Of a stretch of DNA of 64,000 nt, positions 8,318-24,017 are shown piece by piece. The number at the start of each line of letters is the position of its first letter. Within the stretch, counting starts at the first letter, position 1. A model generated the notes under the pieces. The model made no database searches and was not told where the DNA came from. It saw only the letters and a program-made list of their open reading frames with translations. Origin of the DNA: a virus. The translations under genes were made by a program, and so were the position numbers. The stretch spans positions 3,584 through 67,583 of the IMG/VR virus record IMGVR_UViG_3300009702_000785; one strand, given 5' to 3'.

Positions 8318-10002
8318 TTTGCCCTCCTAAAAAGGCTTTTGATAACGTCTTTGTTCCCAGTTTTCAGTTGTTTCACAAATTCGTCAGAGTAACAATGTTG
8401 TTCGTCTGATATTTCATCAATTTCTATGCGATGATAGAACTGTAAAACATCTTGCTGGGTGATCCCTCTCATGCTCGGCGGTAAAGAATCATCTGGATCA
8501 TCGGTAGGAGCAGGTTGCAAATTTGCTGGATTTACTAATTCTGATGGGTCAAACGCATAGTCACTGCGAAGATTTACGAGCCAGTCACGATATCGCTTGT
8601 AAAAATCTTCCTTATCCTCAAAACAATAAGGAACAATAACATCATATTTGGGCTTCACGTAGTTGACATAATCACCAACTTGTAGTTCTCCAGATTCTAT
8701 ACGCTCTCTGTCAAATGGGTGTAATCTCGCCCCTCTTCCAATGTTCTGCTGAAACTTAGTGAGATTACATGCTCGTAGAAACACAACGCCAGTCAGCATA
8801 GGAATATCTAATCCCACACCAATCATATCAACGTGAAAGATAATTGCTTCATCAGTGTCCTTCATGTCCCAAACAGAGTGTAAAAATTCTTCTTTGCGTC
8901 GATTGGAAACCAACTTGTAGTGATGACCATCAAACTCAATTCCCCAATCAACACATAACCCGTAAATCTTGATATTAGGGTTGGACTTTCTAAGTTTTTT
9001 GAACTGTCGAGATTCAAACAACCCCCTCATATTGCCTTGTCCATTACATACGACGAGCATTTTAGCACCAATCATATCTGGGTAATCTGACCGTCGCTTC
9101 ACGACTTCTCGGTGTTTTGTAAAAGCCTGATAAATCATATCTGCCTGAGCATTGAATGCTCTTGAATCGACATCTGGTGTGATATTAGAGAACTCAAATT
9201 CATCATCAATGTCGAGTATGCCGTCAATTTCTGGATTTGTTCCTACTATGTGCAGAACTGGACCAACAATGGCTCCTGCTTCGATTAGTTCTCTTGGGGA
9301 ACGTCTAAATACAACAGGTCCGTAAACATCCTCATTGTTCATTCCTTTGCCTTTAGAGGATGCTGTTATTCTGGGGGTAGCAGTTGCGAAGACTTTTTTG
9401 TCTGCATCCAACTCAGTCGCTGCGAAGAAATCATCTTCACAAACTAAAAGCTCCGACTTTCCAGTTGGAAGAAAGTGTGCTTCGTCATAAAAAGAAAAAT
9501 CAACGTGAAAGCCTGCTTGACGTACAGACTTGTTAGAATGATAAGTCGATATCACAAGAACGTTGTAATTAGAGCGAACCAAGAAGTCTACTCGATCCCG
9601 TAGTTTCTTGGGATTTGTTGTACTATAAGCAGGAATTGTGCCTTTAGTACCAGCCTTCTTATGGGCTTTTTCGTATTCAATTCCTGTCTTTCCAACAGGA
9701 TCAGAACCTACAAAAATCAGATGCCACTTTCTTTTACCTTTTCTGTTCTTATTTAGATGAGCATTGCAAGCCTTCGCCCACTGTTTGTTCAAAATAAGAC
9801 GTGGCGTGAAGAAAACAGAGACGAATGGAGTGCTCTTTATTTGAGCAAGCCGAAACGCTATTTCACGACCTATAACCCCCTTGCCGCCTGCTGTGGGTAA
9901 ATCCAGTCTACCTTTGACAATTTCATCGGGAAGAAAGGAGAAAACTGCTTCCTCCTCATAATCCCACAGTTGCTTGATGTCGTCTCTGATATCTCTACTC
10001 AT
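8314..10002 (-). CDS. SF2 helicase/translocase (restriction-type)
   Basis: LPTAGGKG Walker A, FYDEAH Walker B, FATATP motif III, GVGLDIP motif V, QNIGRGAR motif VI. Confidence 0.9.
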   Translation of the reverse strand: MSRDIRDDIKQLWDYEEEAVFSFLPDEIVKGRLDLPTAGGKGVIGREIAFRLAQIKSTPFVSVFFTPRLILNKQWAKACNAHLNKNRKGKRKWHLIFVGSDPVGKTGIEYEKAHKKAGTKGTIPAYSTTNPKKLRDRVDFLVRSNYNVLVISTYHSNKSVRQAGFHVDFSFYDEAHFLPTGKSELLVCEDDFFAATELDADKKVFATATPRITASSKGKGMNNEDVYGPVVFRRSPRELIEAGAIVGPVLHIVGTNPEIDGILDIDDEFEFSNITPDVDSRAFNAQADMIYQAFTKHREVVKRRSDYPDMIGAKMLVVCNGQGNMRGLFESRQFKKLRKSNPNIKIYGLCVDWGIEFDGHHYKLVSNRRKEEFLHSVWDMKDTDEAIIFHVDMIGVGLDIPMLTGVVFLRACNLTKFQQNIGRGARLHPFDRERIESGELQVGDYVNYVKPKYDVIVPYCFEDKEDFYKRYRDWLVNLRSDYAFDPSELVNPANLQPAPTDDPDDSLPPSMRGITQQDVLQFYHRIEIDEISDEQHCYSDEFVKQLKTGNKDVIKSLFRRAK

Positions 10003-10648
10003 TCGATTCTAATGCCTTCAACCAAGAGTCTCTGAATGTGTTCCAAAAATGAAGATTATTGTCAACTTTTCGTCGCAAATCTCGTCTGGTAATTTCGTGA
10101 ACTTCTGGCAACATAAAACCTGCCGCGTTCACACCTAAACATTTCCCAGAATGGATGACTGTCATATTACATTTTCCATTTTCATCAGGTATCGAGTCAA
10201 CTCCAAAGCCACCAATATCTGGATGGGAATAAGAATTTTTGGCAAAATTCCCCAGATGGTCGTTATTAGTGCTTAGTTCATGATTCGCTTGTCGATATTT
10301 GAATTGCACGGTGTGGATTTTGCCGTTTAGACCAAGACCGCTACCATCTACACCTCGGTCTTCTCCCTCTTCTATTACGTTATAGGATGTAGGTTCGATA
10401 CCAACTTTTTTGTCGGTGCCAAATACTCTTATGAAGCATTCGCCAAATAGCTCGAATCCATCCCCTTTGTATTGATTGAGAAGTTCTTCATCGGCAGGTC
10501 TAATCCATCCGTCATCTGGACCTGTAGCATAACGTTCTGCTTGTTTTTCAAGTCTGTTGGCAAAAGTGTTAAAAAGGGTACAATCTTGAAGCAGACCAAC
10601 TGGGTCAATGCATCGATGCAGAAACGGATGCGTTAATTGAACAATCAT
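9995..10648 (-). CDS. Mrr-like PD-(D/E)xK restriction endonuclease
   Basis: GDGFELF...DRGVDG...VQFKY (E...D...QxK pattern); GGAGA SD. Confidence 0.72.
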   Translation of the reverse strand: MIVQLTHPFLHRCIDPVGLLQDCTLFNTFANRLEKQAERYATGPDDGWIRPADEELLNQYKGDGFELFGECFIRVFGTDKKVGIEPTSYNVIEEGEDRGVDGSGLGLNGKIHTVQFKYRQANHELSTNNDHLGNFAKNSYSHPDIGGFGVDSIPDENGKCNMTVIHSGKCLGVNAAGFMLPEVHEITRRDLRRKVDNNLHFWNTFRDSWLKALESNE

Positions 10649-13081: not shown

Positions 13082-13465
13082 TCAAGAAAAAAACTTGGAA
13101 ACGGCGTCCAACTCTTCAGAAGCCTTGGTGGGATCAGAAGTTGCGTGGGCGATGTTTTTGGGCAATTCGATAAAATTCACGAATCTACGTCTGAATGCCT
13201 CGACAATTTCCCTGCATTTGGGTACTGCGTCGTCGCCCTCAACTTCGATAAGTACTGCTGGACCACTTATGATATGTTCGATATTGCGTGCGAAGAAGTC
13301 TTTGCCTTTATGTTCAGCATAAAGTGCTTCCGCCTCAGTCTTGCTTAGTGTTTTGCAGGTCATTCGTGAAATCTTCAGGTCTGTGTATTCAATCTCACTA
13401 ATAACCAACCCGATTAACTTAAGTTCAACACCATCAGGCTTGACCATTACGAGCGTTTTTTCCAT
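13082..13465 (-). CDS. ndk: Nucleoside diphosphate kinase
   Basis: EKTLVMVKPDGV, HKGKDFF, ISGP, NIAHATS (catalytic His). Confidence 0.92.
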   Translation of the reverse strand: MEKTLVMVKPDGVELKLIGLVISEIEYTDLKISRMTCKTLSKTEAEALYAEHKGKDFFARNIEHIISGPAVLIEVEGDDAVPKCREIVEAFRRRFVNFIELPKNIAHATSDPTKASEELDAVSKFFS

Positions 13466-16911: not shown

Positions 16912-17014
16912 TGCGGGTGGTGGGAGTCGAACCCACACACCCTTTCGGGCAAGGGATTTTAGCGAGAGAATCTATTCTCGAAGTCCCTAGCGTCTGCCAT
17001 TCCGCCACACCCGC
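16912..17014 (-). tRNA. tRNA-Leu(UAA) with a 20-nt hairpin insertion in the anticodon loop
   Basis: Complete Leu body (GCGGGTG/CACCCGC, long variable arm, TTCGA). Stem AGGGA/TCCCT encloses 27 nt = CTTAAAA + 20 nt. Confidence 0.8.
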
Positions 17015-17844: not shown

Positions 17845-17870
17845 TTTGCAGCCTCCAACGGACAAAAATA

Positions 17871-17995
17871 GGTCGGCAGGCGTCCCATATCCGATACTGT
17901 CTCTCGGGCAACTTCCGCGGCCTCGGTACGTGACGCCGTAGGTTTGGACCCCACAGCCGGGAACGCGCCCGCGCCAAGCATAACTCTGCCGTCAA
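17871..17995 (-). ncRNA. Candidate structured RNA (leader or sRNA)
   Basis: GC-rich nested stems (GGCAG/CTGCC, GCGTTCC/GGGACGC, GCTGTGGG/CCTACGGC) downstream of a promoter, followed by TATTTTT. Confidence 0.5.
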
Positions 17996-17999
17996 CTAT

Positions 18000-18028
18000 A
18001 GTCTACAGCATTTCCGGTCGAAAGTCAA
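18000..18028 (-). promoter_or_regulatory. Sigma70 promoter
   Basis: TTGACT-N17-TAGACT. Confidence 0.7.
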
Positions 18029-18033
18029 ATGAA

Positions 18034-19227
18034 CTACCCAAGGGCTAAAGACCCTTGGGTTTCGTGTATCACAGACTTCTCCAATGAGAACGCCTCCTCA
18101 CGTTTTTGTTTAGACTCCGACTTAGTTCCTAAACCAGAGTATATCTTCAAACCTTGCTCTAATATGTTTTCAGCAGCATTAACATCCCTGTCTAACTCGA
18201 CAGAACAAGAAGGACAAATCCACTTCCTGTCCTCCAGAGTTAAATCATCTTTGATATATTTGCACTTATTGCAGGTCTTACTTGAAGGAAAAAATCTGTC
18301 AACCTGAATGAATGTTCTTTCGTTCCATTCACTTTTATATTGTATCTGACGTATGAGTTCTCCCCAAGAAGCATCTGCAATAGATTTTGCTAAACAGTGG
18401 TTCTTCATCATATTTGCTACGCCTAAACTCTCCATACATATCGTTTGATTTTCACGAACTATGTTTGAAGAGATTTGGTGCAAATGGTTATGACGAATGT
18501 TAGAAATTCTTTCATGAACTCTTGCAACCCTGACACGTTGCTTCCACCTGTTATTAGAGCCTTTGGTTTTCTTGCTTAACTGACGTTGTTCGTATGTTAG
18601 TTTCTTCTTGTGTTTGTATGTTGTTTTGATATTTGAGTGCTTCGTTCCATCAGAACAAATTGCTAAGTCTTTGATACCTAAGTCAACACCAACTTTTTTG
18701 TCTGTTGGAGCATAAGGAATGTGTTCTGTTTCTACAGTGATAGATACAAAATATTTACCAGATGGTTTCCTACTCAGAGTAGCAAACAGAATTTTCCCTG
18801 TTAGTGGTCTATCTTCGTTTACTTTGATAGGTTGTTTAAACTTAGGAAGTTTGAGTTCACCATCTGTATATTTTACAAACTGTGGAACACGAAAAGACTG
18901 CTGATTTCGTTTTGCTTTGAAACGAGGGAAACATGCTTGTTTTCTAAAGAACCTGTTGTACGCAGTATCTAAATCTCTGAGTGCTGCTTGAAGAGATTGA
19001 GAATTGATTTCATTTAACCACTCATATTGTTCGTCTTTCTTGAGAGCAGTGAGAGATTTGGCGTTATCATAGTAATTGAGAGTTTCTTGGTTTTTGAGGT
19101 ATAATGATTTGCGTTTGTTAAGGAAATAATTGTAGACGAACCGTTTAGAACCGAAGTGTTTAGCCAATAGAACTTGTTGTTCTTTGGTGGGATACATTCT
19201 GTAACGGAATGTCTTTGTGACAGTCAT
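18034..19227 (-). CDS. tnpB: TnpB RNA-guided endonuclease, apparently intact
   Basis: HTH start, GVDLG, CMESL, CNKC/CPSC, DRDVNAAENI. Confidence 0.95.
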   Translation of the reverse strand: MTVTKTFRYRMYPTKEQQVLLAKHFGSKRFVYNYFLNKRKSLYLKNQETLNYYDNAKSLTALKKDEQYEWLNEINSQSLQAALRDLDTAYNRFFRKQACFPRFKAKRNQQSFRVPQFVKYTDGELKLPKFKQPIKVNEDRPLTGKILFATLSRKPSGKYFVSITVETEHIPYAPTDKKVGVDLGIKDLAICSDGTKHSNIKTTYKHKKKLTYEQRQLSKKTKGSNNRWKQRVRVARVHERISNIRHNHLHQISSNIVRENQTICMESLGVANMMKNHCLAKSIADASWGELIRQIQYKSEWNERTFIQVDRFFPSSKTCNKCKYIKDDLTLEDRKWICPSCSVELDRDVNAAENILEQGLKIYSGLGTKSESKQKREEAFSLEKSVIHETQGSLALG

Positions 19228-19305
19228 GCACTATTATACAAGAATATTTACGAAGTTCCTTCTTTTTGGTAAAGGAAGTTCTGAGAATATTTTGAATATT
19301 AGTGT

Positions 19306-19716
19306 ATGGCTCAGAAGTATCACAGAAAGAACCACTGCAAGTATATGATTAAGTTACACATGATATTCGTGGTGAAGTATCGTAAACCTTTGTTGGCAGG
19401 AGACTTAGGCGAAGATATTAAGCAGATAATGTTCGATATAAGCAAGAAAGAGGACAGCAATTTTTCTGTAGACACGATGGAAGTGGACAAAGACCACTTA
19501 CATATGTTGCTTGATATTGAGCCTACGGTAAGTGCAGTTTCTATTGTTAATCGTTTGAAATCCATGTCTACACACAGAATATGGGAATTACGCAAGAATG
19601 AGTTGAAGAAGGATTTCTGGAAAGAACAGACATTTTGGAGTGATGGGTATTTTGTTTGTTCAACTGGTGATGCGTGTATGGAAACGATTAGGAAATATAT
19701 TGAAGAGCAGGGGTGA
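19306..19716 (+). CDS. tnpA: IS200-type Y1 HUH transposase
   Basis: HMIFVVKYRK, DKDHLHML (HUH), FWSDGYFVCS, IRKYIEEQ. Confidence 0.95.
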   Translation: MAQKYHRKNHCKYMIKLHMIFVVKYRKPLLAGDLGEDIKQIMFDISKKEDSNFSVDTMEVDKDHLHMLLDIEPTVSAVSIVNRLKSMSTHRIWELRKNELKKDFWKEQTFWSDGYFVCSTGDACMETIRKYIEEQG

Positions 19717-19840
19717 TGGAGAGTGCGTCAATTCATCCCCTTGGCTAAAGACCAAGGGGTTTTCTTGGCGCATAAAATAAAAAAATGTGAATGCCCCAGG
19801 CAGGATTTAAGAATACCTAGATTTCTGTTCTTTTGTCCAA

Positions 19841-19914
19841 TACCGATGGTGGGAGTCGAACCCACAACTACTTGATTTTAAGTCAAGCTCCTCTGCCAAT
19901 TGGGATACACCGGC
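19841..19914 (-). tRNA. tRNA with UAA anticodon (Leu), short variable loop
   Basis: 74-nt cloverleaf; CTTGA-CTTAAAA-TCAAG; A73. Confidence 0.85.
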
Positions 19915-19932
19915 AAATTTTTACAGATGTCG

Positions 19933-20091
19933 CTAACAGTGTGACGTGGTATATTGTTCGTTGAGTAGATTATCATGGCCGCCTTCCACCGATACTTCGG
20001 AGAGTATTTTGTCTGCTTGTTCAAACTTGCCTTCCCAGAAAAGATCGTCGATAACATCGAAAATCTTGTCTAGCTGTTGGTCAACACTCAT
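19933..20091 (-). CDS. 52-aa acidic hypothetical peptide
   Basis: MSVDQQLDKIFDVIDDLFWEGKFEQADKIL..., translated by hand. Confidence 0.45.
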   Translation of the reverse strand: MSVDQQLDKIFDVIDDLFWEGKFEQADKILSEVSVEGGHDNLLNEQYTTSHC

Positions 20092-20093
20092 AC

Positions 20094-20120
20094 TACCCCT
20101 GACAGGAGTCGAACCTGCAC
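20094..20120 (-). pseudogene. 3' tRNA fragment (T-arm + acceptor strand)
   Basis: GCAGGTTCGACTCCTGTCAGGGGTA, directly downstream of tRNA-Leu(UAG). Confidence 0.7.
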
Positions 20121-20126
20121 ACGCAA

Positions 20127-20209
20127 TGCCCCCGACAGGATTCGAACCTGTACGCCCTTTCAGGCACGGCGTCCTAAACGCCGCGTGTCTGCCGTTTCAC
20201 CACGGAGGC
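20127..20209 (-). tRNA. tRNA-Leu(UAG)
   Basis: CGGCG-TTTAGGA-CGCCG, long variable arm. Confidence 0.92.
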
Positions 20210-20668
20210 TTTTAATTGCCGACCCCTAAATGTAGGAGTCTGGGAATGACAATTTGGGCAGAGAATCCTCAAATTGCCGATTTTGTTATTACAGTTATCT
20301 CCATCTATGTGGTCAAGTTCCAAAACAATTGATTTTCCATTCCATTCATTCCCCAACCCACACTCGGAACATATTTCATCTAATAGACCGGCTTTGAACA
20401 ATTTTTGCTTTAGATTGACAGACTTGAAGTAAGTCCCTTTTTTCAATATTTTCTCAAGTGGTATGGCATTAAGAGCAGTTCCATTCAAATTCCATCCTTG
20501 ACCAAGAAAATGATCCCATTCAATACCATTATTTGTGGCTATTTTTTTGAGATTGGAGATGTTGCCACCGGCATATTTAAGCCCGATTTTCTTTGTCACT
20601 TGTCTCCACGACTCTGACGTTTTGATAGCAGTTCGTAAATCGTCTACGGAATATCGTTTTGATGCCAT
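20174..20668 (-). CDS. HNH endonuclease
   Basis: CSECG...LELDHIDGDNCNN...NLRILCPNCHSQT. Confidence 0.9.
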   Translation of the reverse strand: MASKRYSVDDLRTAIKTSESWRQVTKKIGLKYAGGNISNLKKIATNNGIEWDHFLGQGWNLNGTALNAIPLEKILKKGTYFKSVNLKQKLFKAGLLDEICSECGLGNEWNGKSIVLELDHIDGDNCNNKIGNLRILCPNCHSQTPTFRGRQLKASVVKRQTRGV

Positions 20669-20720
20669 AATAGTCTCCTGTATTACACATTCGACTTTTC
20701 TGGCATACTTCCTTCTTTAT

Positions 20721-20752
20721 TCTTGCGCGTCTGCCAATTCCGCCACGAGCCC
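20721..20752 (-). pseudogene. 5' half of a tRNA-Leu
   Basis: GGGCTCGTGGCGGAATTGGCAGACGCGCAAGA with no matching 3' half. Confidence 0.7.
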
Positions 20753-20781
20753 GTTGGCCCGACCTGGCCGGGCCTTGCGGG

Positions 20782-20976
20782 TTACGAAACCCGAACTCTG
20801 CGCTTGTCGCCGGTATCTGTCTTTTCAACAACAAATTCATCGTTGTTAAAGATTACCCACCAATCCAACTCATCGTTGCTGTCGGAGAAGACTTCGTGCC
20901 ACTTTTCTCCATCATAATCGAGAAAATTAGGGTCTGGGTCTCCGGGTAATGCTTTCTTGTATACTTTTAATGCCAT
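20782..20976 (-). CDS. Hypothetical protein
   Basis: AGGAG SD and an upstream TATAAT. Confidence 0.55.
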   Translation of the reverse strand: MALKVYKKALPGDPDPNFLDYDGEKWHEVFSDSNDELDWWVIFNNDEFVVEKTDTGDKRRVRVS

Positions 20977-21065
20977 TGGATTCATCTCCTTTTGTATGAT
21001 GTGTAGTTGTATTATACTAGAATACCTAAGCGATTTCCTTCATTTTTTGAGAGTTTACACGTTGA

Positions 21066-21138
21066 AGAGTGCGGTGGGACTCGAACCCACGGTATCGTGC
21101 TTTGCAGGCACGCGCCTTCGCCACTCGGCCACGCACTC
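21066..21138 (-). tRNA. tRNA-Cys(GCA)
   Basis: CGTGC-CTGCAAA-GCACG; U73. Confidence 0.93.
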
Positions 21139-21185
21139 ATATTTTTGCAGCCTCGCGCCTATCCTCTTGGCTACTCAGTCATTTA

Positions 21186-21256
21186 CGACCCCAGCGGGAG
21201 TTGAACCCGCCCCTCAAGATCGACAGTCTCACGTGCTACCGAAACACCTTGGGGCC
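21186..21256 (-). tRNA. tRNA-Asp(GUC)
   Basis: TGAGA-CTGTCGA-TCTTG; G73. Confidence 0.88.
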
Positions 21257-21291
21257 TATTACACTCGCAAACGTAAATCTACAAGGGTTAA

Positions 21292-21348
21292 TCGACTCGC
21301 ATAACCCGCATCGACAGTGCGGTGCATTCGCCATTATGCTACGCCTCT
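21292..21348 (-). pseudogene. Truncated tRNA-Asp(GUC)
   Basis: D-arm and CCGCA-CTGTCGA-TGCGG are intact; T-arm and 3' strand are disrupted. Confidence 0.65.
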
Positions 21349-21355
21349 ATTGTTT

Positions 21356-21694
21356 TTACCGTATGTATCTGTCTGGATACCTACGACAATCTTTTGCTAA
21401 TTGTATTAACATCTCTCCGATTTTTTCTGCTTCTTCTGGTGTTAGATCAACCGTATGTGTACATGACTGCATCGACAAAAGAAACTTCTGTGTTTTAGTC
21501 ATTGGATCATATTCTTTAGGGTCTACATATCCAAATGCCTGAAGTACCACATGCGGCAATCCACTTCGTCTGTCAAGATTTACTCTACCACCATATCTAC
21601 CACCATGCCGACCATTTTCATCACAATTTTGCGTGATCGTTTCTTCGATTTCCAATTCAAAATGTGGGCATTCATCCGATTGTTCGATTATCAT
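21356..21694 (-). CDS. Hypothetical protein within the tRNA array
   Basis: 112-aa ORF between tRNAs. Confidence 0.65.
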   Translation of the reverse strand: MIIEQSDECPHFELEIEETITQNCDENGRHGGRYGGRVNLDRRSGLPHVVLQAFGYVDPKEYDPMTKTQKFLLSMQSCTHTVDLTPEEAEKIGEMLIQLAKDCRRYPDRYIR

Positions 21695-21750
21695 GTCTTT
21701 TTCCTATAAAATGCGGGCGTACAGATACCCTAGTAATTATAAGAGAAAAC

Positions 21751-21824
21751 TGCGGAAGGTGGGAATCGAACCCACAACTCACTAGCTCTGAACCAGCGTC
21801 CTCTGCCGATTGGGATACTCCCGC
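21751..21824 (-). tRNA. tRNA with CAG anticodon (Leu), short variable loop
   Basis: 74 nt; GCTGG-TTCAGAG-CTAGT; D- and T-arm nearly identical to the 19841 tRNA. Confidence 0.85.
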
Positions 21825-21830
21825 TCTAAC

Positions 21831-21901
21831 TCAGGAGATGGAATCGAACCCATGTCATCGAGCAAACAACTCGACTGCTCTATCCAGTTAATCTACTCCC
21901 A
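21831..21901 (-). pseudogene. Degenerate tRNA (Asn-like, GUU)
   Basis: TCGAG-TTGTTTG-CTCGA; weak D-stem, T-stem and acceptor pairing. Confidence 0.5.
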
Positions 21902-21929
21902 CAATATGGTTCCAATTCCTCGAAAATAA

Positions 21930-21998
21930 CAGGGGCGAAGAGTGTCGATCTCTTTCCACCGAGTTTTGGAGACTCAGGGCCAGGCCGCTGGCACCCCT
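21930..21998 (-). tRNA. tRNA-Trp(CCA), short D-arm
   Basis: AGGGGTG/CGCCCCT; TGAGT-CTCCAAA-ACTCG; atypical T-loop ATCGACA. Confidence 0.75.
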
Positions 21999-22052
21999 AA
22001 AGTTGAGAGCAAAAGTTTTCATTGCTGTACATTTTCTCCCCCGTTTTCAAAG

Positions 22053-22127
22053 TGGCGGGGGACGTAGGAATCGAACCTACAATGACCAATTTGGACTCAG
22101 TCATGTATCCAGTTTGTATGCAACGAC
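22053..22127 (-). pseudogene. Degenerate tRNA (Trp-like) ending in CCA
   Basis: Good T-arm and encoded CCA; 5' acceptor strand does not pair. Confidence 0.45.
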
Positions 22128-22143
22128 AGTAGGTTGCTCTCAA

Positions 22144-22227
22144 TGGCCTCGGTGGGACTCGAACCCACAACCCGGTTGAGGGACCAGATTTTGAATCTGG
22201 CGCGTATGCCAATTTCGCCACGCGGCC
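22144..22227 (-). tRNA. tRNA-Leu(CAA)
   Basis: CCAGA-TTCAAAA-TCTGG, long variable arm. Confidence 0.9.
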
Positions 22228-22273
22228 GTCTACCTTTGTGTTTGTATGCGACAGAATTTAGGTCGCAGTCCAA

Positions 22274-22357
22274 TGGGGGCGATAGGAATCGAACCTATTC
22301 AGGCTTTCGCCAACGGGTTTACAGCCCGTCCCAACTCTCCAACTTTGGCGCACCCCC
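22274..22357 (-). tRNA. tRNA-Tyr(GUA)
   Basis: ACGGG-CTGTAAA-CCCGT, long variable arm. Confidence 0.92.
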
Positions 22358-22477
22358 TTATTTTAACCATAATATAATTCTTTCCAATATTTTCCCACCT
22401 GTTCTTCGGGAGAAGGATTCGAACCTTCAATCGTTGTTTGTATGCAATAACGAGTAGGTCGCATCCGATTTCCTAAA

Positions 22478-22562
22478 TGCGGTCGGAGGGATTCGAACCC
22501 TCACGGGCTTATTGCCCACGGCACTCTCAACGCCGCTCGTCTACCAATTCCGACACGACCGC
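22478..22562 (-). tRNA. tRNA-Leu(GAG)
   Basis: CGGCG-TTGAGAG-TGCCG, long variable arm. Confidence 0.93.
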
Positions 22563-22810
22563 TTAAGTGAGTCTGAACTTGTCAAAGAGCAATCCTGCAA
22601 CTGATCCAAAGACCTAACATCAATTAGTCGTCTCAATTGCGGAACAAATCTGTGACTTCTGCTTTTGTCTGCCGACAGATGCATTGTCACATAACCGCCT
22701 GCTGCTGATATATATTCAACTCTCGCACCTAGTCTATTACATAGGAACAGTATCTTAGGTAACGCTCCCATAGTGCGTATATTCAGAGTCAGTATAATCT
22801 GTTTTCTCAT
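22541..22810 (-). CDS. Stand-alone ACT-domain protein (IlvN/IlvM-like)
   Basis: IILTL....GALPKIL.L..RLGARVEYIS...L..QLRRLIDV pattern. Confidence 0.7.
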   Translation of the reverse strand: MRKQIILTLNIRTMGALPKILFLCNRLGARVEYISAAGGYVTMHLSADKSRSHRFVPQLRRLIDVRSLDQLQDCSLTSSDSLKRSCRNW

Positions 22811-22847
22811 GCTCTTAGAATACTCGGATACCCTCACATTGATCTCC

Positions 22848-22884
22848 AAAAAAAATCCCAGTAACCTTGTCAGGCTACCGGGAC
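22848..22884 (-). terminator. Intrinsic terminator (attenuator)
   Basis: TCCCGGTAGCC-TGACAA-GGTTACTGGGA 11-bp stem followed by T8. Confidence 0.9.
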
Positions 22885-22911
22885 TTGCTGAAGATCATTT
22901 CAACGCGAAGT

Positions 22912-22977
22912 CTAGGTAGCCGTGGCCTCCCACAGATAATCAAGGTCGTGCGATAAACTAACTAGACAAAAGAGCAT
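22912..22977 (-). CDS. Candidate attenuator leader peptide MLFCLVSLSHDLDYLWEATAT
   Basis: 21 codons between promoter and terminator. Its 3' end GGCTACC is complementary to GGTAGCC in the terminator stem. Confidence 0.6.
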   Translation of the reverse strand: MLFCLVSLSHDLDYLWEATAT

Positions 22978-23023
22978 TGGTCTGTTTCCCAGTGAAAACG
23001 GGACAATTCCCGTCACTGCCATC

Positions 23024-23052
23024 ATTATACCCGCTTATACGCCAAAGGTCAA
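23024..23052 (-). promoter_or_regulatory. Sigma70 promoter heading the ACT/tRNA array
   Basis: TTGACC-N17-TATAAT, followed by a 5' hairpin (CAGTGA-CGGGA/TCCCG-TCACTG). Confidence 0.85.
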
Positions 23053-23063
23053 GGGAAATCCTT

Positions 23064-24017
23064 CTAAAAAACAGATTTTTCTTCCCTCGATGGTATACCC
23101 TGTTTAATCGCAGAAATCAAGCGAAAATCTTTGTCAGGGAGATTTTTTGGCATCGGCAATTTGCAGAGGTCGATATACCACCCTAAGTTCATAGGTATGT
23201 TCATTTCGTCCACCTCTTGCAAAAACTCGAAACCTGCCTCATAGATCGACAGGTCATCGCAGACGCATATTTCTCTAAAGAACGAATAGTACTTCTCGAT
23301 AGAGTCTTTCTGCGTACCAATGAAGTGGATGGTTTCGGCTGTTTCGTAGGTAAAAGGCTTCCACCAGCTGTAGATTTCAATCGGAATGCGGGTGATACAA
23401 AAGTCGGTGGCCCTTTCTAGGTCATATAGAGCCAGATTGGATGTGCCCTGCTCGTTGATATGGTAAGATCGCTCAGAATCCAGAGAAAGTTGGTCAGCGT
23501 GCTTTTTGAACAAGTTTCTCCAGATGTTATCCTTCAAACCGACAATACCTACATTGACGATGCCGTCATAGCCCCGCAACCGACTTTTGAAGTCTCCGAC
23601 ATTTTGGGCTATCCAATTGCCCATAAAGTCTCTACCAGCAATCATATTGGATGGAGAGTTGAGCCAATCTACCAGAGTTTGCGGCTTGCGTATAAAGAAA
23701 ACATCTGTATCAATGAAAACCTCAATAGGTTTGATGTTCAAATTGAATGGTGCCCACTTCCACCAAGCTCCGCCGATCACGTCGAAAGCAAAAGCCCAAT
23801 CTTTATCAGTCTGTTTACGCAAGATCAAGTTGTTGAAGTCGATGATGTTGTCATACGATTGAATTGCCCTACAGAATTTCGGGAAGTCAGCCCCGTTGTA
23901 TGAAACACAGTAAGATGCTTCAGGAAAGAACCGCTGTAATGATGCTACTGCGAGGTTGGTTCTGTATACCGAACTATCGCTGTCACCTGTAGCCCACCTG
24001 AATAATACGTTGTTCAT
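23064..24017 (-). CDS. GT-A-like nucleotide-diphospho-sugar transferase
   Basis: VFIDTDVFF (DxD), IVNVGIV, INEQG, IHFIG. Confidence 0.65.
   Translation of the reverse strand: MNNVLFRWATGDSDSSVYRTNLAVASLQRFFPEASYCVSYNGADFPKFCRAIQSYDNIIDFNNLILRKQTDKDWAFAFDVIGGAWWKWAPFNLNIKPIEVFIDTDVFFIRKPQTLVDWLNSPSNMIAGRDFMGNWIAQNVGDFKSRLRGYDGIVNVGIVGLKDNIWRNLFKKHADQLSLDSERSYHINEQGTSNLALYDLERATDFCITRIPIEIYSWWKPFTYETAETIHFIGTQKDSIEKYYSFFREICVCDDLSIYEAGFEFLQEVDEMNIPMNLGWYIDLCKLPMPKNLPDKDFRLISAIKQGIPSREEKSVF

Follow-up and report, generated by a model that had tools for sequence, protein, structure and literature searches.

A probable leader-peptide attenuator heading the tRNA operon of a giant-phage fragment

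Whether bacteriophages carry tRNA genes for codon compensation, for replacement after host shut-off, or for escape from tRNA-cleaving defences has been debated for decades. The locus described here raises a related question, namely whether a phage may sense the decoding capacity of its host before it transcribes its own tRNA genes. The window analyzed in this study is a stretch of 64,000 nucleotides (nt), bases 3584-67583 of the 133-kb IMG/VR virus record IMGVR_UViG_3300009702_000785, which is taken as a giant-phage fragment because its completeness by CheckV is only about 30%. On the minus strand of this window, we found a promoter, a short leader open reading frame (ORF), and two mutually exclusive RNA helices upstream of an array of eight tRNA genes. 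The conservation of this unit among related phages and the codon content of its leader make it probable that the phage tRNA operon is controlled by transcription attenuation of the ribosome-mediated (leader-peptide) kind.

The preliminary description of the locus, made from the letters of the DNA alone, had listed a promoter, a 5' hairpin, a 21-codon ORF, a terminator with a U8 tract, a gene for an ACT-domain protein, and the tRNA array, and all of these parts are present on the minus strand in that order (Table 1). In a consensus scan, the promoter was the single site scoring at least 11/12 between 19.5 and 24.5 kb, and comparable sites in the genome numbered 11 observed versus 4 expected. 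The leader contains five Leu codons (CTC, CTA, TTA, CTT, and CTG), which are indeed all different, as had been noted, and further codons for Cys, Asp (two), Tyr, and Trp.

The RNA specified by this segment can adopt alternative structures. The terminator (22886-22853, with the U8 tract extending to 22848) is a stem of 15 bp including G-U pairs, instead of the 11 bp proposed before, with a calculated stability of -22.9 kcal/mol. The antiterminator pairing of GGCTACC with GGTAGCC proved to be real and extends further than proposed, in that GGCUACC-UAG-ACUU (22921-22908) pairs with AAGU-CCC-GGUAGCC over 12 bp enclosing a mini-hairpin (-23.1 kcal/mol). In the nascent transcript before synthesis of the 3' arm of the terminator, the antiterminator was the minimum free energy (MFE) structure. 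In the fold of the complete ribosome-free transcript, codons 4-8 paired with region 2 and the terminator formed. When a ribosome was simulated by masking a 30-nt footprint, the antiterminator remained intact for codons 1-15 in the A site and was abolished from codon 16 on. These predicted folds correspond to the classical 1:2 / 2:3 / 3:4 attenuator design, and the fold stability of the leader RNA gave a z-score of -3.9.

The codons of the leader were compared with the tRNAs encoded downstream. The Leu tRNAs of the array cover all five anticodons, and the eight array tRNAs together with an insert-bearing tRNA-Leu(UAA) (16912-17014) are all the tRNAs of the 133-kb record. Inside the array, a consensus scan found no promoter-like site above 10/12, and nothing resembling a terminator on the minus strand. 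Ten leader codons had been said to be read by downstream tRNAs; this holds for nine of them, and it fails for the Trp codon, as an intact tRNA-Trp was not detectable in the window or in the 133-kb record, where the only trace, near 22050-22140, is a degenerate fragment with a CCA loop. Against the codon usage of the phage itself (Leu 7.3%; Leu, Cys, Asp, Tyr, and Trp together 21.8%), the probability of at least five Leu in 20 codons was 0.012, that of five distinct Leu codons was 0.08, and that of the 9-10 of 20 codons falling within the tRNA set was 0.005-0.01.

Relatives of the element were found via a large protein database, a DNA pattern in metagenomes, and RNA-ligase homologs. The 317-aa protein encoded upstream of the element has homologs at 44-47% identity in syntenic contigs, and the related contigs are not assembly variants of one genome, because their proteins diverge by 40-60%. 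Eight distinct homologous leaders were compared, drawn from the window, L014, L008, L009 (identical L010 and L015), L013, L011, L021, L023, and L018. Additionally, L022 matches the covariance model R1 at 127 bits and was grouped with L021, and L019 has the same tRNA layout and terminator coordinates as L018. Good E-values of R1 were obtained for known homologs alone; four weak matches included the real analogous leaders of L091 and L082, which are described below, and L090, a plain terminator followed by a promoter. A pattern match in viral contigs (L012) was rejected: it falls within a polymerase-like coding gene, and its agreement with the 18 specified bases is due to chance.

Across the relatives, the promoter is kept as TTGACT-N17-TATAAT, and a Shine-Dalgarno (SD) sequence of AGGA (L014) or AAGGA/AAGGAG (L008, L011, L013, L018, and L023) lies 8-10 nt ahead of the start codon. 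The leader ORFs have 19-22 codons and are the sole open frame, and the insertions and deletions (indels) of 3 nt and 9 nt are all in frame. In all homologous leaders, the stop codon lies inside the internal loop of the antiterminator (TAG, but TAA in L018). The segment upstream of region 2 diverges freely between clades at the RNA level, with the frame and codon set being kept.

Both helices are conserved as well, with stabilities of -17 to -25 kcal/mol for the terminators of the relatives and -19 to -25 kcal/mol for the antiterminators (computed for six of eight). The equivalent of the 1:2 pairing was part of the full-length MFE structure in L013 and L014, but not in L008, L009, and L011. In the eight aligned sequences, 107 of 116 terminator cells were paired and seven pairs had changed on both sides; for the antiterminator, 90 of 96 cells were paired with four double-sided changes, whereas register-shifted controls gave 20-54 of 96. 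Single bases of the shared strand covary in both helices; column 202 (U/C) of A3, for example, changes together with antiterminator column 174 and with terminator column 229. This three-way covariation is the pattern predicted by a two-state switch.

The codon content of the homologous leaders (peptides in Table 1) is kept more strictly than their order. In L014 and L013, which belong to different clades, each of the six Leu codons occurs exactly once, in differing order (P ~0.012 each, for six draws); the other homologous leaders miss one Leu codon, with the exception of L023, which has four Leu of three kinds. The peptides of L018 and L023 are scrambled, yet Leu, Asp, Tyr, Cys, and Trp are retained, and L018 has both Asp and both Tyr codons. 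Hence, what is under selection is the presence of the codons, and neither the RNA sequence nor the peptide. Downstream of the homologous leaders, the arrays encode tRNA-Leu with several anticodons, tRNA-Tyr, tRNA-Asp, and tRNA-Cys, and L008 and L021 carry a real tRNA-Trp. In the relatives, 10-13 of the 18-21 leader codons match tRNAs of the array (P = 5e-5 to 7e-4).

Table 1. Features of the attenuator locus and its surroundings in the window, and leader peptides of related phages
Feature	Position	Strand	Remarks
Sigma-70-type promoter, TTGACC-N17-TATAAT	TTGACC 23052-23047; TATAAT 23029-23024	minus	11/12 consensus match
5' hairpin at transcript start, dispensable	22998-23014	minus	Present in L014 and L011; mostly deleted in L008 clade
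Weak SD, GGGA	22987-22990	minus	9 nt ahead of leader ATG
Leader ORF, 21 codons and TAG	ATG 22977 to TAG 22914-22912	minus	Peptide MLFCLVSLSHDLDYLWEATAT; sole open frame in the stretch
Region 1, leader codons 4-8; can pair with region 2	22955-22967	minus	Full-length MFE structure
Region 2, antiterminator 5' strand GGCTACC-TAG-ACTT	22908-22921	minus	Leader stop in internal loop; 90/96 cells paired among relatives
Mini-hairpin inside antiterminator	22887-22904	minus	
Region 3, shared strand (terminator 5' arm and antiterminator 3' strand)	22872-22886	minus	Most conserved segment
Region 4	22848-22867	minus	Terminator 3' arm 22867-22853; U8 tract 22855-22848
Putative first regulated gene, 98-aa IlvN-like ACT-domain protein	22541-22847	minus	GGAG SD 22847-22844; GTG start 22837
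tRNA-Leu(GAG), first of eight	22562-22478	minus	Overlapped by 98-aa ORF
tRNA array: Leu(GAG), Tyr, Leu(CAA), Leu(CAG), Asp, Cys, Leu(UAG), Leu(UAA)	19840-22562	minus	Among small ORFs, HNH gene, and tRNA-like fragments
HNH endonuclease gene, between tRNAs	20174-20668		
TnpB of IS200/IS605 pair, within tRNA region	18034-19716 (pair)	minus (TnpB)	
Candidate TnpA, 136-aa ORF	19306-19716	plus	Assigned without domain scan
Insert-bearing tRNA-Leu(UAA)	16912-17014		Detected by Rfam only
Leader peptide, L014			MLFCLGLLHDLDYLWEATAT
Leader peptide, L008 and L013			MILCSLLLDLDYLWEDRAT
Leader peptide, L011			MIVRDLCSLLLDLDYLWEDKAA
Leader peptide, L021			MIFSVLCSLLDLDYLWENRAT
Leader peptide, L023			MFVDLDSLYYLDDCLWGGGAA
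Leader peptide, L018			MKRELDRLYCLLDWYLRKEVAA

The homologous leader always heads a Leu-centred tRNA array, regardless of the cargo that intervenes. L014, L011, L021, and L023 have a gene for an RNA ligase (PF09414) between the leader and the tRNAs, a remnant of this gene follows the leader in L008, L013, and L015, and L018 has no cargo, the U tract abutting tRNA-Leu(CAA). For L011 and L014, assignment of the gene following the leader as a DUF3228 homolog was rejected, as this gene is the PF09414 RNA ligase and is unrelated to the DUF3228 protein of the window. The ligase under the putative switch in the relatives suggests tRNA repair.

In the window, the place of the ligase is taken by the gene for a 98-aa protein, for which Pfam gave ACT_5 only, below threshold (E = 0.066). 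Its AlphaFold2 (AF2) model, with a predicted local distance difference test (pLDDT) score of 84.7, has the beta-alpha-beta-beta-alpha-beta topology of ACT domains, and the closest match in the PDB was E. coli IlvN (5ypp, 5ypp_E). An exhaustive protein search identified 14 distant homologs, and those with genomic context sit between the gene for the large subunit of acetolactate synthase (a TPP-enzyme gene) and ilvC, the order in the L004 operon being ilvB-ACT-ilvC-leuA-leuCD-leuB. The 98-aa protein is therefore predicted to be an IlvN/IlvM-like regulatory subunit of acetolactate synthase, on account of its ACT fold, IlvN as the top PDB match, and homologs adjoining the large subunit. Neither this protein nor the upstream 317-aa protein had a match in viral contigs. 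The ACT ORF retains the SD, the start position, and the first nine codons (an N-terminal extension) of the RNA ligase (compared with L014:985-1640 and L011:9210-9832), which indicates that the ACT gene is a late, lineage-specific replacement of the ligase gene. The conserved tRNA-proximal motif CTTTGACAAGTTCAGA marks the second junction of the replacement, and no RNA ligase copy was found in the 133-kb record. The IlvN-like protein could modulate branched-chain amino-acid synthesis of the host.

Leaders of similar design, but not homologous to that of the window, were found in other giant phages. We scanned 71 giant-phage loci, obtained via the ligase alignment, for terminators with an adjoining short ORF upstream of tRNAs (L062 fell below the energy cut-off and outside the leader-ORF check). 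The leader MRITTSTFNNNTYSCCFNSNSKLVEFV and its homolog in L082 and L059, in which Ser is always encoded by AGY, and Asn, Phe, and Cys each by both of their codons, precede tRNA-Phe(GAA), tRNA-Asn(GUU), tRNA-Ser(GCU), tRNA-Cys, and tRNA-Thr(CGU). Likewise, L091 and L087 encode a leader with FEFNFDAAEAD before tRNAs for Asp, Phe, Glu, and Ala, L027 one with FWCNWC before tRNAs for Trp and Cys, and L077 one with LEREREEER before tRNA-Glu; a second, weak unit of L077 has three Asp in 18 codons before three tRNA-Asp. In L082, L059, and L027, the 5' arm of the terminator pairs with the end of the ORF. The binomial P values per leader family were 5e-3, 2e-2, 4e-6, 4e-3, 0.14, and 2e-3 (P = 2e-10 when combined by Fisher's method), and among 720 permutations the true assignment of leaders to arrays scored best. 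The covariation of leader codons with tRNA content in related phages, which the preliminary description had proposed as a check, was thus observed in homologous and non-homologous leaders.

Terminators just upstream of tRNAs in L032, L038, L061, L085, and L090 were rejected as candidates, being ordinary gene-end terminators without a credible leader ORF. Since several array heads carry such ordinary terminators, the device appears to be common and not universal. Separately, the two single-amino-acid units of L077 (4960-5180 and 11440-11670, for Asp and Glu) each have a TTGAC(A/G)-N17-TATAAA promoter and a short ORF enriched in the amino acid concerned; the Asp unit ends in two successive hairpin-plus-T-run elements, and the Glu unit in a T-poor hairpin followed by one terminator.

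From these features, the following mechanism can be proposed. The consensus promoter would start transcription, and a ribosome would translate the 21-codon leader. With prompt decoding, the ribosome would reach codons 16-21 and the TAG and cover region 2, so that regions 3 and 4 would pair and the polymerase would stop at the U8 tract after about 170 nt. A ribosome stalled in codons 2-15, which are rich in Leu codons of five kinds and also specify Cys, Asp, Tyr, and Trp, would leave region 2 free to pair with region 3 once the latter is transcribed, whereby the terminator would be blocked and transcription would continue. The readthrough transcript would include the IlvN-like ACT gene and the tRNAs for Leu (five anticodons), Tyr, Asp, and Cys. 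As the products would be the tRNAs that read the test codons, the element would constitute a negative-feedback sensor of decoding capacity. Leader translation, stall-controlled readthrough, and a natural cause of tRNA depletion are what we infer from sequence comparison; the trigger may be tRNA cleavage by host defence, host shut-off or tRNA shortage, or starvation.

Other explanations of the locus have to be weighed against this one. The first gene past the terminator is IlvN-like, cellular ACT homologs lie in ilvB-ACT-ilvC-leuABCD operons, and upstream of ilvB in the L004 operon (L004:5718-5960) there is a classical leader peptide with LLLLLLVII at its C terminus, behind which stand a hairpin and a T run; the window leader is also Leu-rich. 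The element and the ACT gene might therefore have been captured jointly from a bacterial ilv operon, as the preliminary description had cautioned, in which case attenuation would respond to starvation for Leu or other amino acids. We consider this unlikely. The captured-attenuator idea fails because the ACT gene is a late replacement of the ligase gene, bearing the ligase SD, start, and first nine codons, and homologous leaders stand without an ACT gene, before the RNA ligase or directly before tRNAs. In addition, Leu, Cys, Asp, Tyr, and Trp share no biosynthetic pathway but equal the tRNA set, and the cellular ACT genes overlap the large-subunit gene and have no leader of their own. The L004 leader, the sole ilv leader compared, showed no obvious likeness to the window leader by eye, no alignment being made. 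Starvation for the leader amino acids would still trip the switch, as one possible physiological input. It is also very unlikely that the unit is a stand-alone small RNA gene, encoding a trans-acting structured RNA of about 170 nt in which the ORF and its codons are incidental. The promoter and the strong intrinsic terminator 170 nt on form the usual signature of such genes, the fold is stable (z = -3.9), and a terminated attenuator RNA able to act in trans, rnTrpL, has been described in another system (PMC6614838). Nevertheless, the in-frame indels, the conserved start, SD, and stop, and the single open frame indicate translation, codon composition is retained where peptide order is scrambled (L018 and L023), unrelated leaders match unrelated arrays, and an alternative structure of equal energy with three-way covariation would be needless for a simple small RNA. 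The terminated leader could additionally act in trans. The two mutually exclusive helices of equal stability, and the fact that the regulated genes would be tRNAs, for which direct sensing is conceivable, could also suit a switch that works without a ribosome, through a T-box-like tRNA contact, a metabolite riboswitch, or an RNA-binding protein. This reading is highly improbable, given that Rfam, searched at the gathering threshold on the whole window and up to E = 10 on the region, yielded only tRNAs and noise and no T-box or other family, and that Stem I, a specifier loop, and a T-box bulge were not noticed by eye, with no explicit search made. Furthermore, the RNA upstream of region 2 diverges between clades while the frame and codon set stay, and the 5' hairpin is deleted in one clade.

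Several points weigh against leader-peptide attenuation of the tRNA genes. The SD of the window leader is weak (GGGA), as had been cautioned, but the relatives have AGGA or AAGGA at the same position. The regulatory codons are scattered and not tandem, unlike those of the trp, his, and leu leaders. The window leader lacks TTG despite the tRNA-Leu(CAA) in the array, and its Trp codon is without an intact cognate tRNA; therefore, the match between leader and array is good, not exact. The proposed switching would also depend on how the RNA polymerase and the ribosome of an uncultured host behave. The source, a subsurface DNA metagenome, is the sole sequencing run containing this DNA, and no RNA run does. 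Among the non-homologous leaders, some families were chosen by eye among ORFs adjoining terminators, and the Asp unit of L077 is not individually significant (P = 0.14). Finally, considering the antiterminator alone, 7-10% of shuffled or random genomic upstream segments stabilised the 5' arm equally (p ~0.07-0.10). This value and the codon enrichment of the window leader (P ~0.005-0.01) are modest and were noticed post hoc, which would suit a chance juxtaposition of an ordinary terminator of the upstream operon, a promoter-like sequence, and a spurious short ORF. In isolation, the features of the window are no more than moderately improbable, and the strength of the case comes from conservation in the relatives. 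A chance juxtaposition is hardly credible, since the entire unit, covariation included, is conserved in eight distinct relatives, and the phenomenon recurs with other codon sets in other phages. Taken together, the tRNA-sensing attenuator of the preliminary description is supported by the conservation of leader and helices and by the match of codons and array, whereas its suggestions of an ilv capture and of a tRNA-Trp in the array did not stand.

The tRNA region has further features. A conserved element, GCGACCTA...GTCGCATACAAAC, follows several tRNAs and precedes a T-arm-like stem and a CCCC/GGGG hairpin. Copies were seen on the minus strand of the window at about 22040-22143, 22400-22470, and 22230-22270, and in L008 at 9500-9600, 9750-9860, and 9990-10070; these elements look like relics of tRNA 3' halves or processing signals. 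One window copy has a CCA anticodon-like loop and corresponds to the "Trp" of the preliminary description. The sequence GGACGTGGC, which is the 5' acceptor segment of tRNA-Leu(GAG), occurs as tandem repeats whose number varies among near-identical contigs, with two copies in L008:9404-9430, about six in L015:4665-4725, and at least five in L013:14390-14434. The tRNA arrays of giant phages (L036, L046, L048, L050, L092, and others) are often grouped by amino acid, such as all four Ser anticodons together, or all five Leu anticodons in L092.

The surroundings in the window fit a giant phage, as they include genes for a homolog of the CCA-adding enzyme, a helicase, an L7/L12-like protein, and the HNH and IS200/IS605 proteins. 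A DNA search of the record with 22541-23100 returned a single match, the region itself. On the minus strand at 17866-18028, the DUF3228 gene is preceded by a TTGACT-N17-TAGACT promoter together with a GC-rich stretch whose last letters are TATTTTT. At some genes, such as those at 13085 and 15269, a consensus -10 box lies merely 5-6 nt ahead of the ATG, which suggests that the phage has leaderless mRNAs.

If this interpretation is correct, the built-in sensor would show a phage treating its tRNA supply as a regulated, conditional need, and the leader would spell out the tRNAs that the phage expects to lose, here every Leu isoacceptor together with those for Cys, Asp, Tyr, and Trp. Attenuation in the style of the trp operon would be extended from enzymes to tRNAs and into viruses, and such leaders would offer compact, programmable, codon-specific sensors of decoding capacity. 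The swap of the ligase for an IlvN-like gene under the same switch would mean that the controlled slot accepts other cargo. More tentatively, giant phages may run their tRNA genes as inducible, self-limiting operons, in which a leader matched to its array down to single synonymous codons senses the loss of particular host isoacceptors, caused for instance by anticodon nucleases or host shut-off, and calls up replacement tRNAs and, in the relatives, repair by the ligase, as a circuit for counter-defence and translation homeostasis; we regard this wider proposal as possible, though short of likely.

In phage T4, tRNA repair by Pnkp and Rnl1 counters the nuclease PrrC. Phage tRNAs that evade anticodon nucleases have also been described (PMC10264068). 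Similarly, the tRNA genes studied here are clustered with an RNA ligase (PF09414) and a CCA-adding enzyme, and it would fit this analogy that the tRNA module replaces or repairs host tRNAs in connection with defence. For such repair and counter-defence systems of phages, we found no description of inducible control by a decoding sensor. In the full-text literature, the coverage of which is incomplete, there was no account of leader-peptide attenuation of tRNA genes in phage or cell, which is absence of evidence only. The application of a classical attenuation mechanism to tRNA genes is probably new.

Among cellular systems, the T-box riboswitches of Firmicutes, which are leaders of aminoacyl-tRNA synthetase and amino-acid genes, also sense specific tRNA pools and control genes of translation supply by switching between terminator and antiterminator. 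However, T-boxes bind uncharged tRNA directly and without translation, whereas the phage element has a conserved ORF and no T-box match. Attenuators of the pheST type are similar in logic: a gene for a component of the decoding machinery is controlled by a leader peptide with many cognate codons, which gives feedback on charged tRNA. Their target is a synthetase, they sense a single amino acid, and they are cellular; in contrast, the targets here are tRNAs, and the sensed set varies with each array. The closest likeness in architecture is to the enterobacterial attenuators (ilvGMEDA, ilvBN, and thr, as well as trpL, hisL, leuL, and pheL), which share the promoter, the codon-enriched short ORF, the four segments pairing as 1:2/2:3/3:4, and a stop codon positioned so that a finishing ribosome blocks the antiterminator; in the ilv and thr attenuators, several amino acids are also sensed together. 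The phage leader has no sequence homology to known leaders and no Rfam match. It also differs from the enterobacterial attenuators in being viral and in having tRNAs, plus a ligase or an ACT protein, as products instead of biosynthetic enzymes, and its codons are dispersed and sample synonymous codons. Because two relatives have each of the six Leu codons exactly once, sensing at the level of isoacceptors, rather than of amino acids, is implied for these phage leaders.

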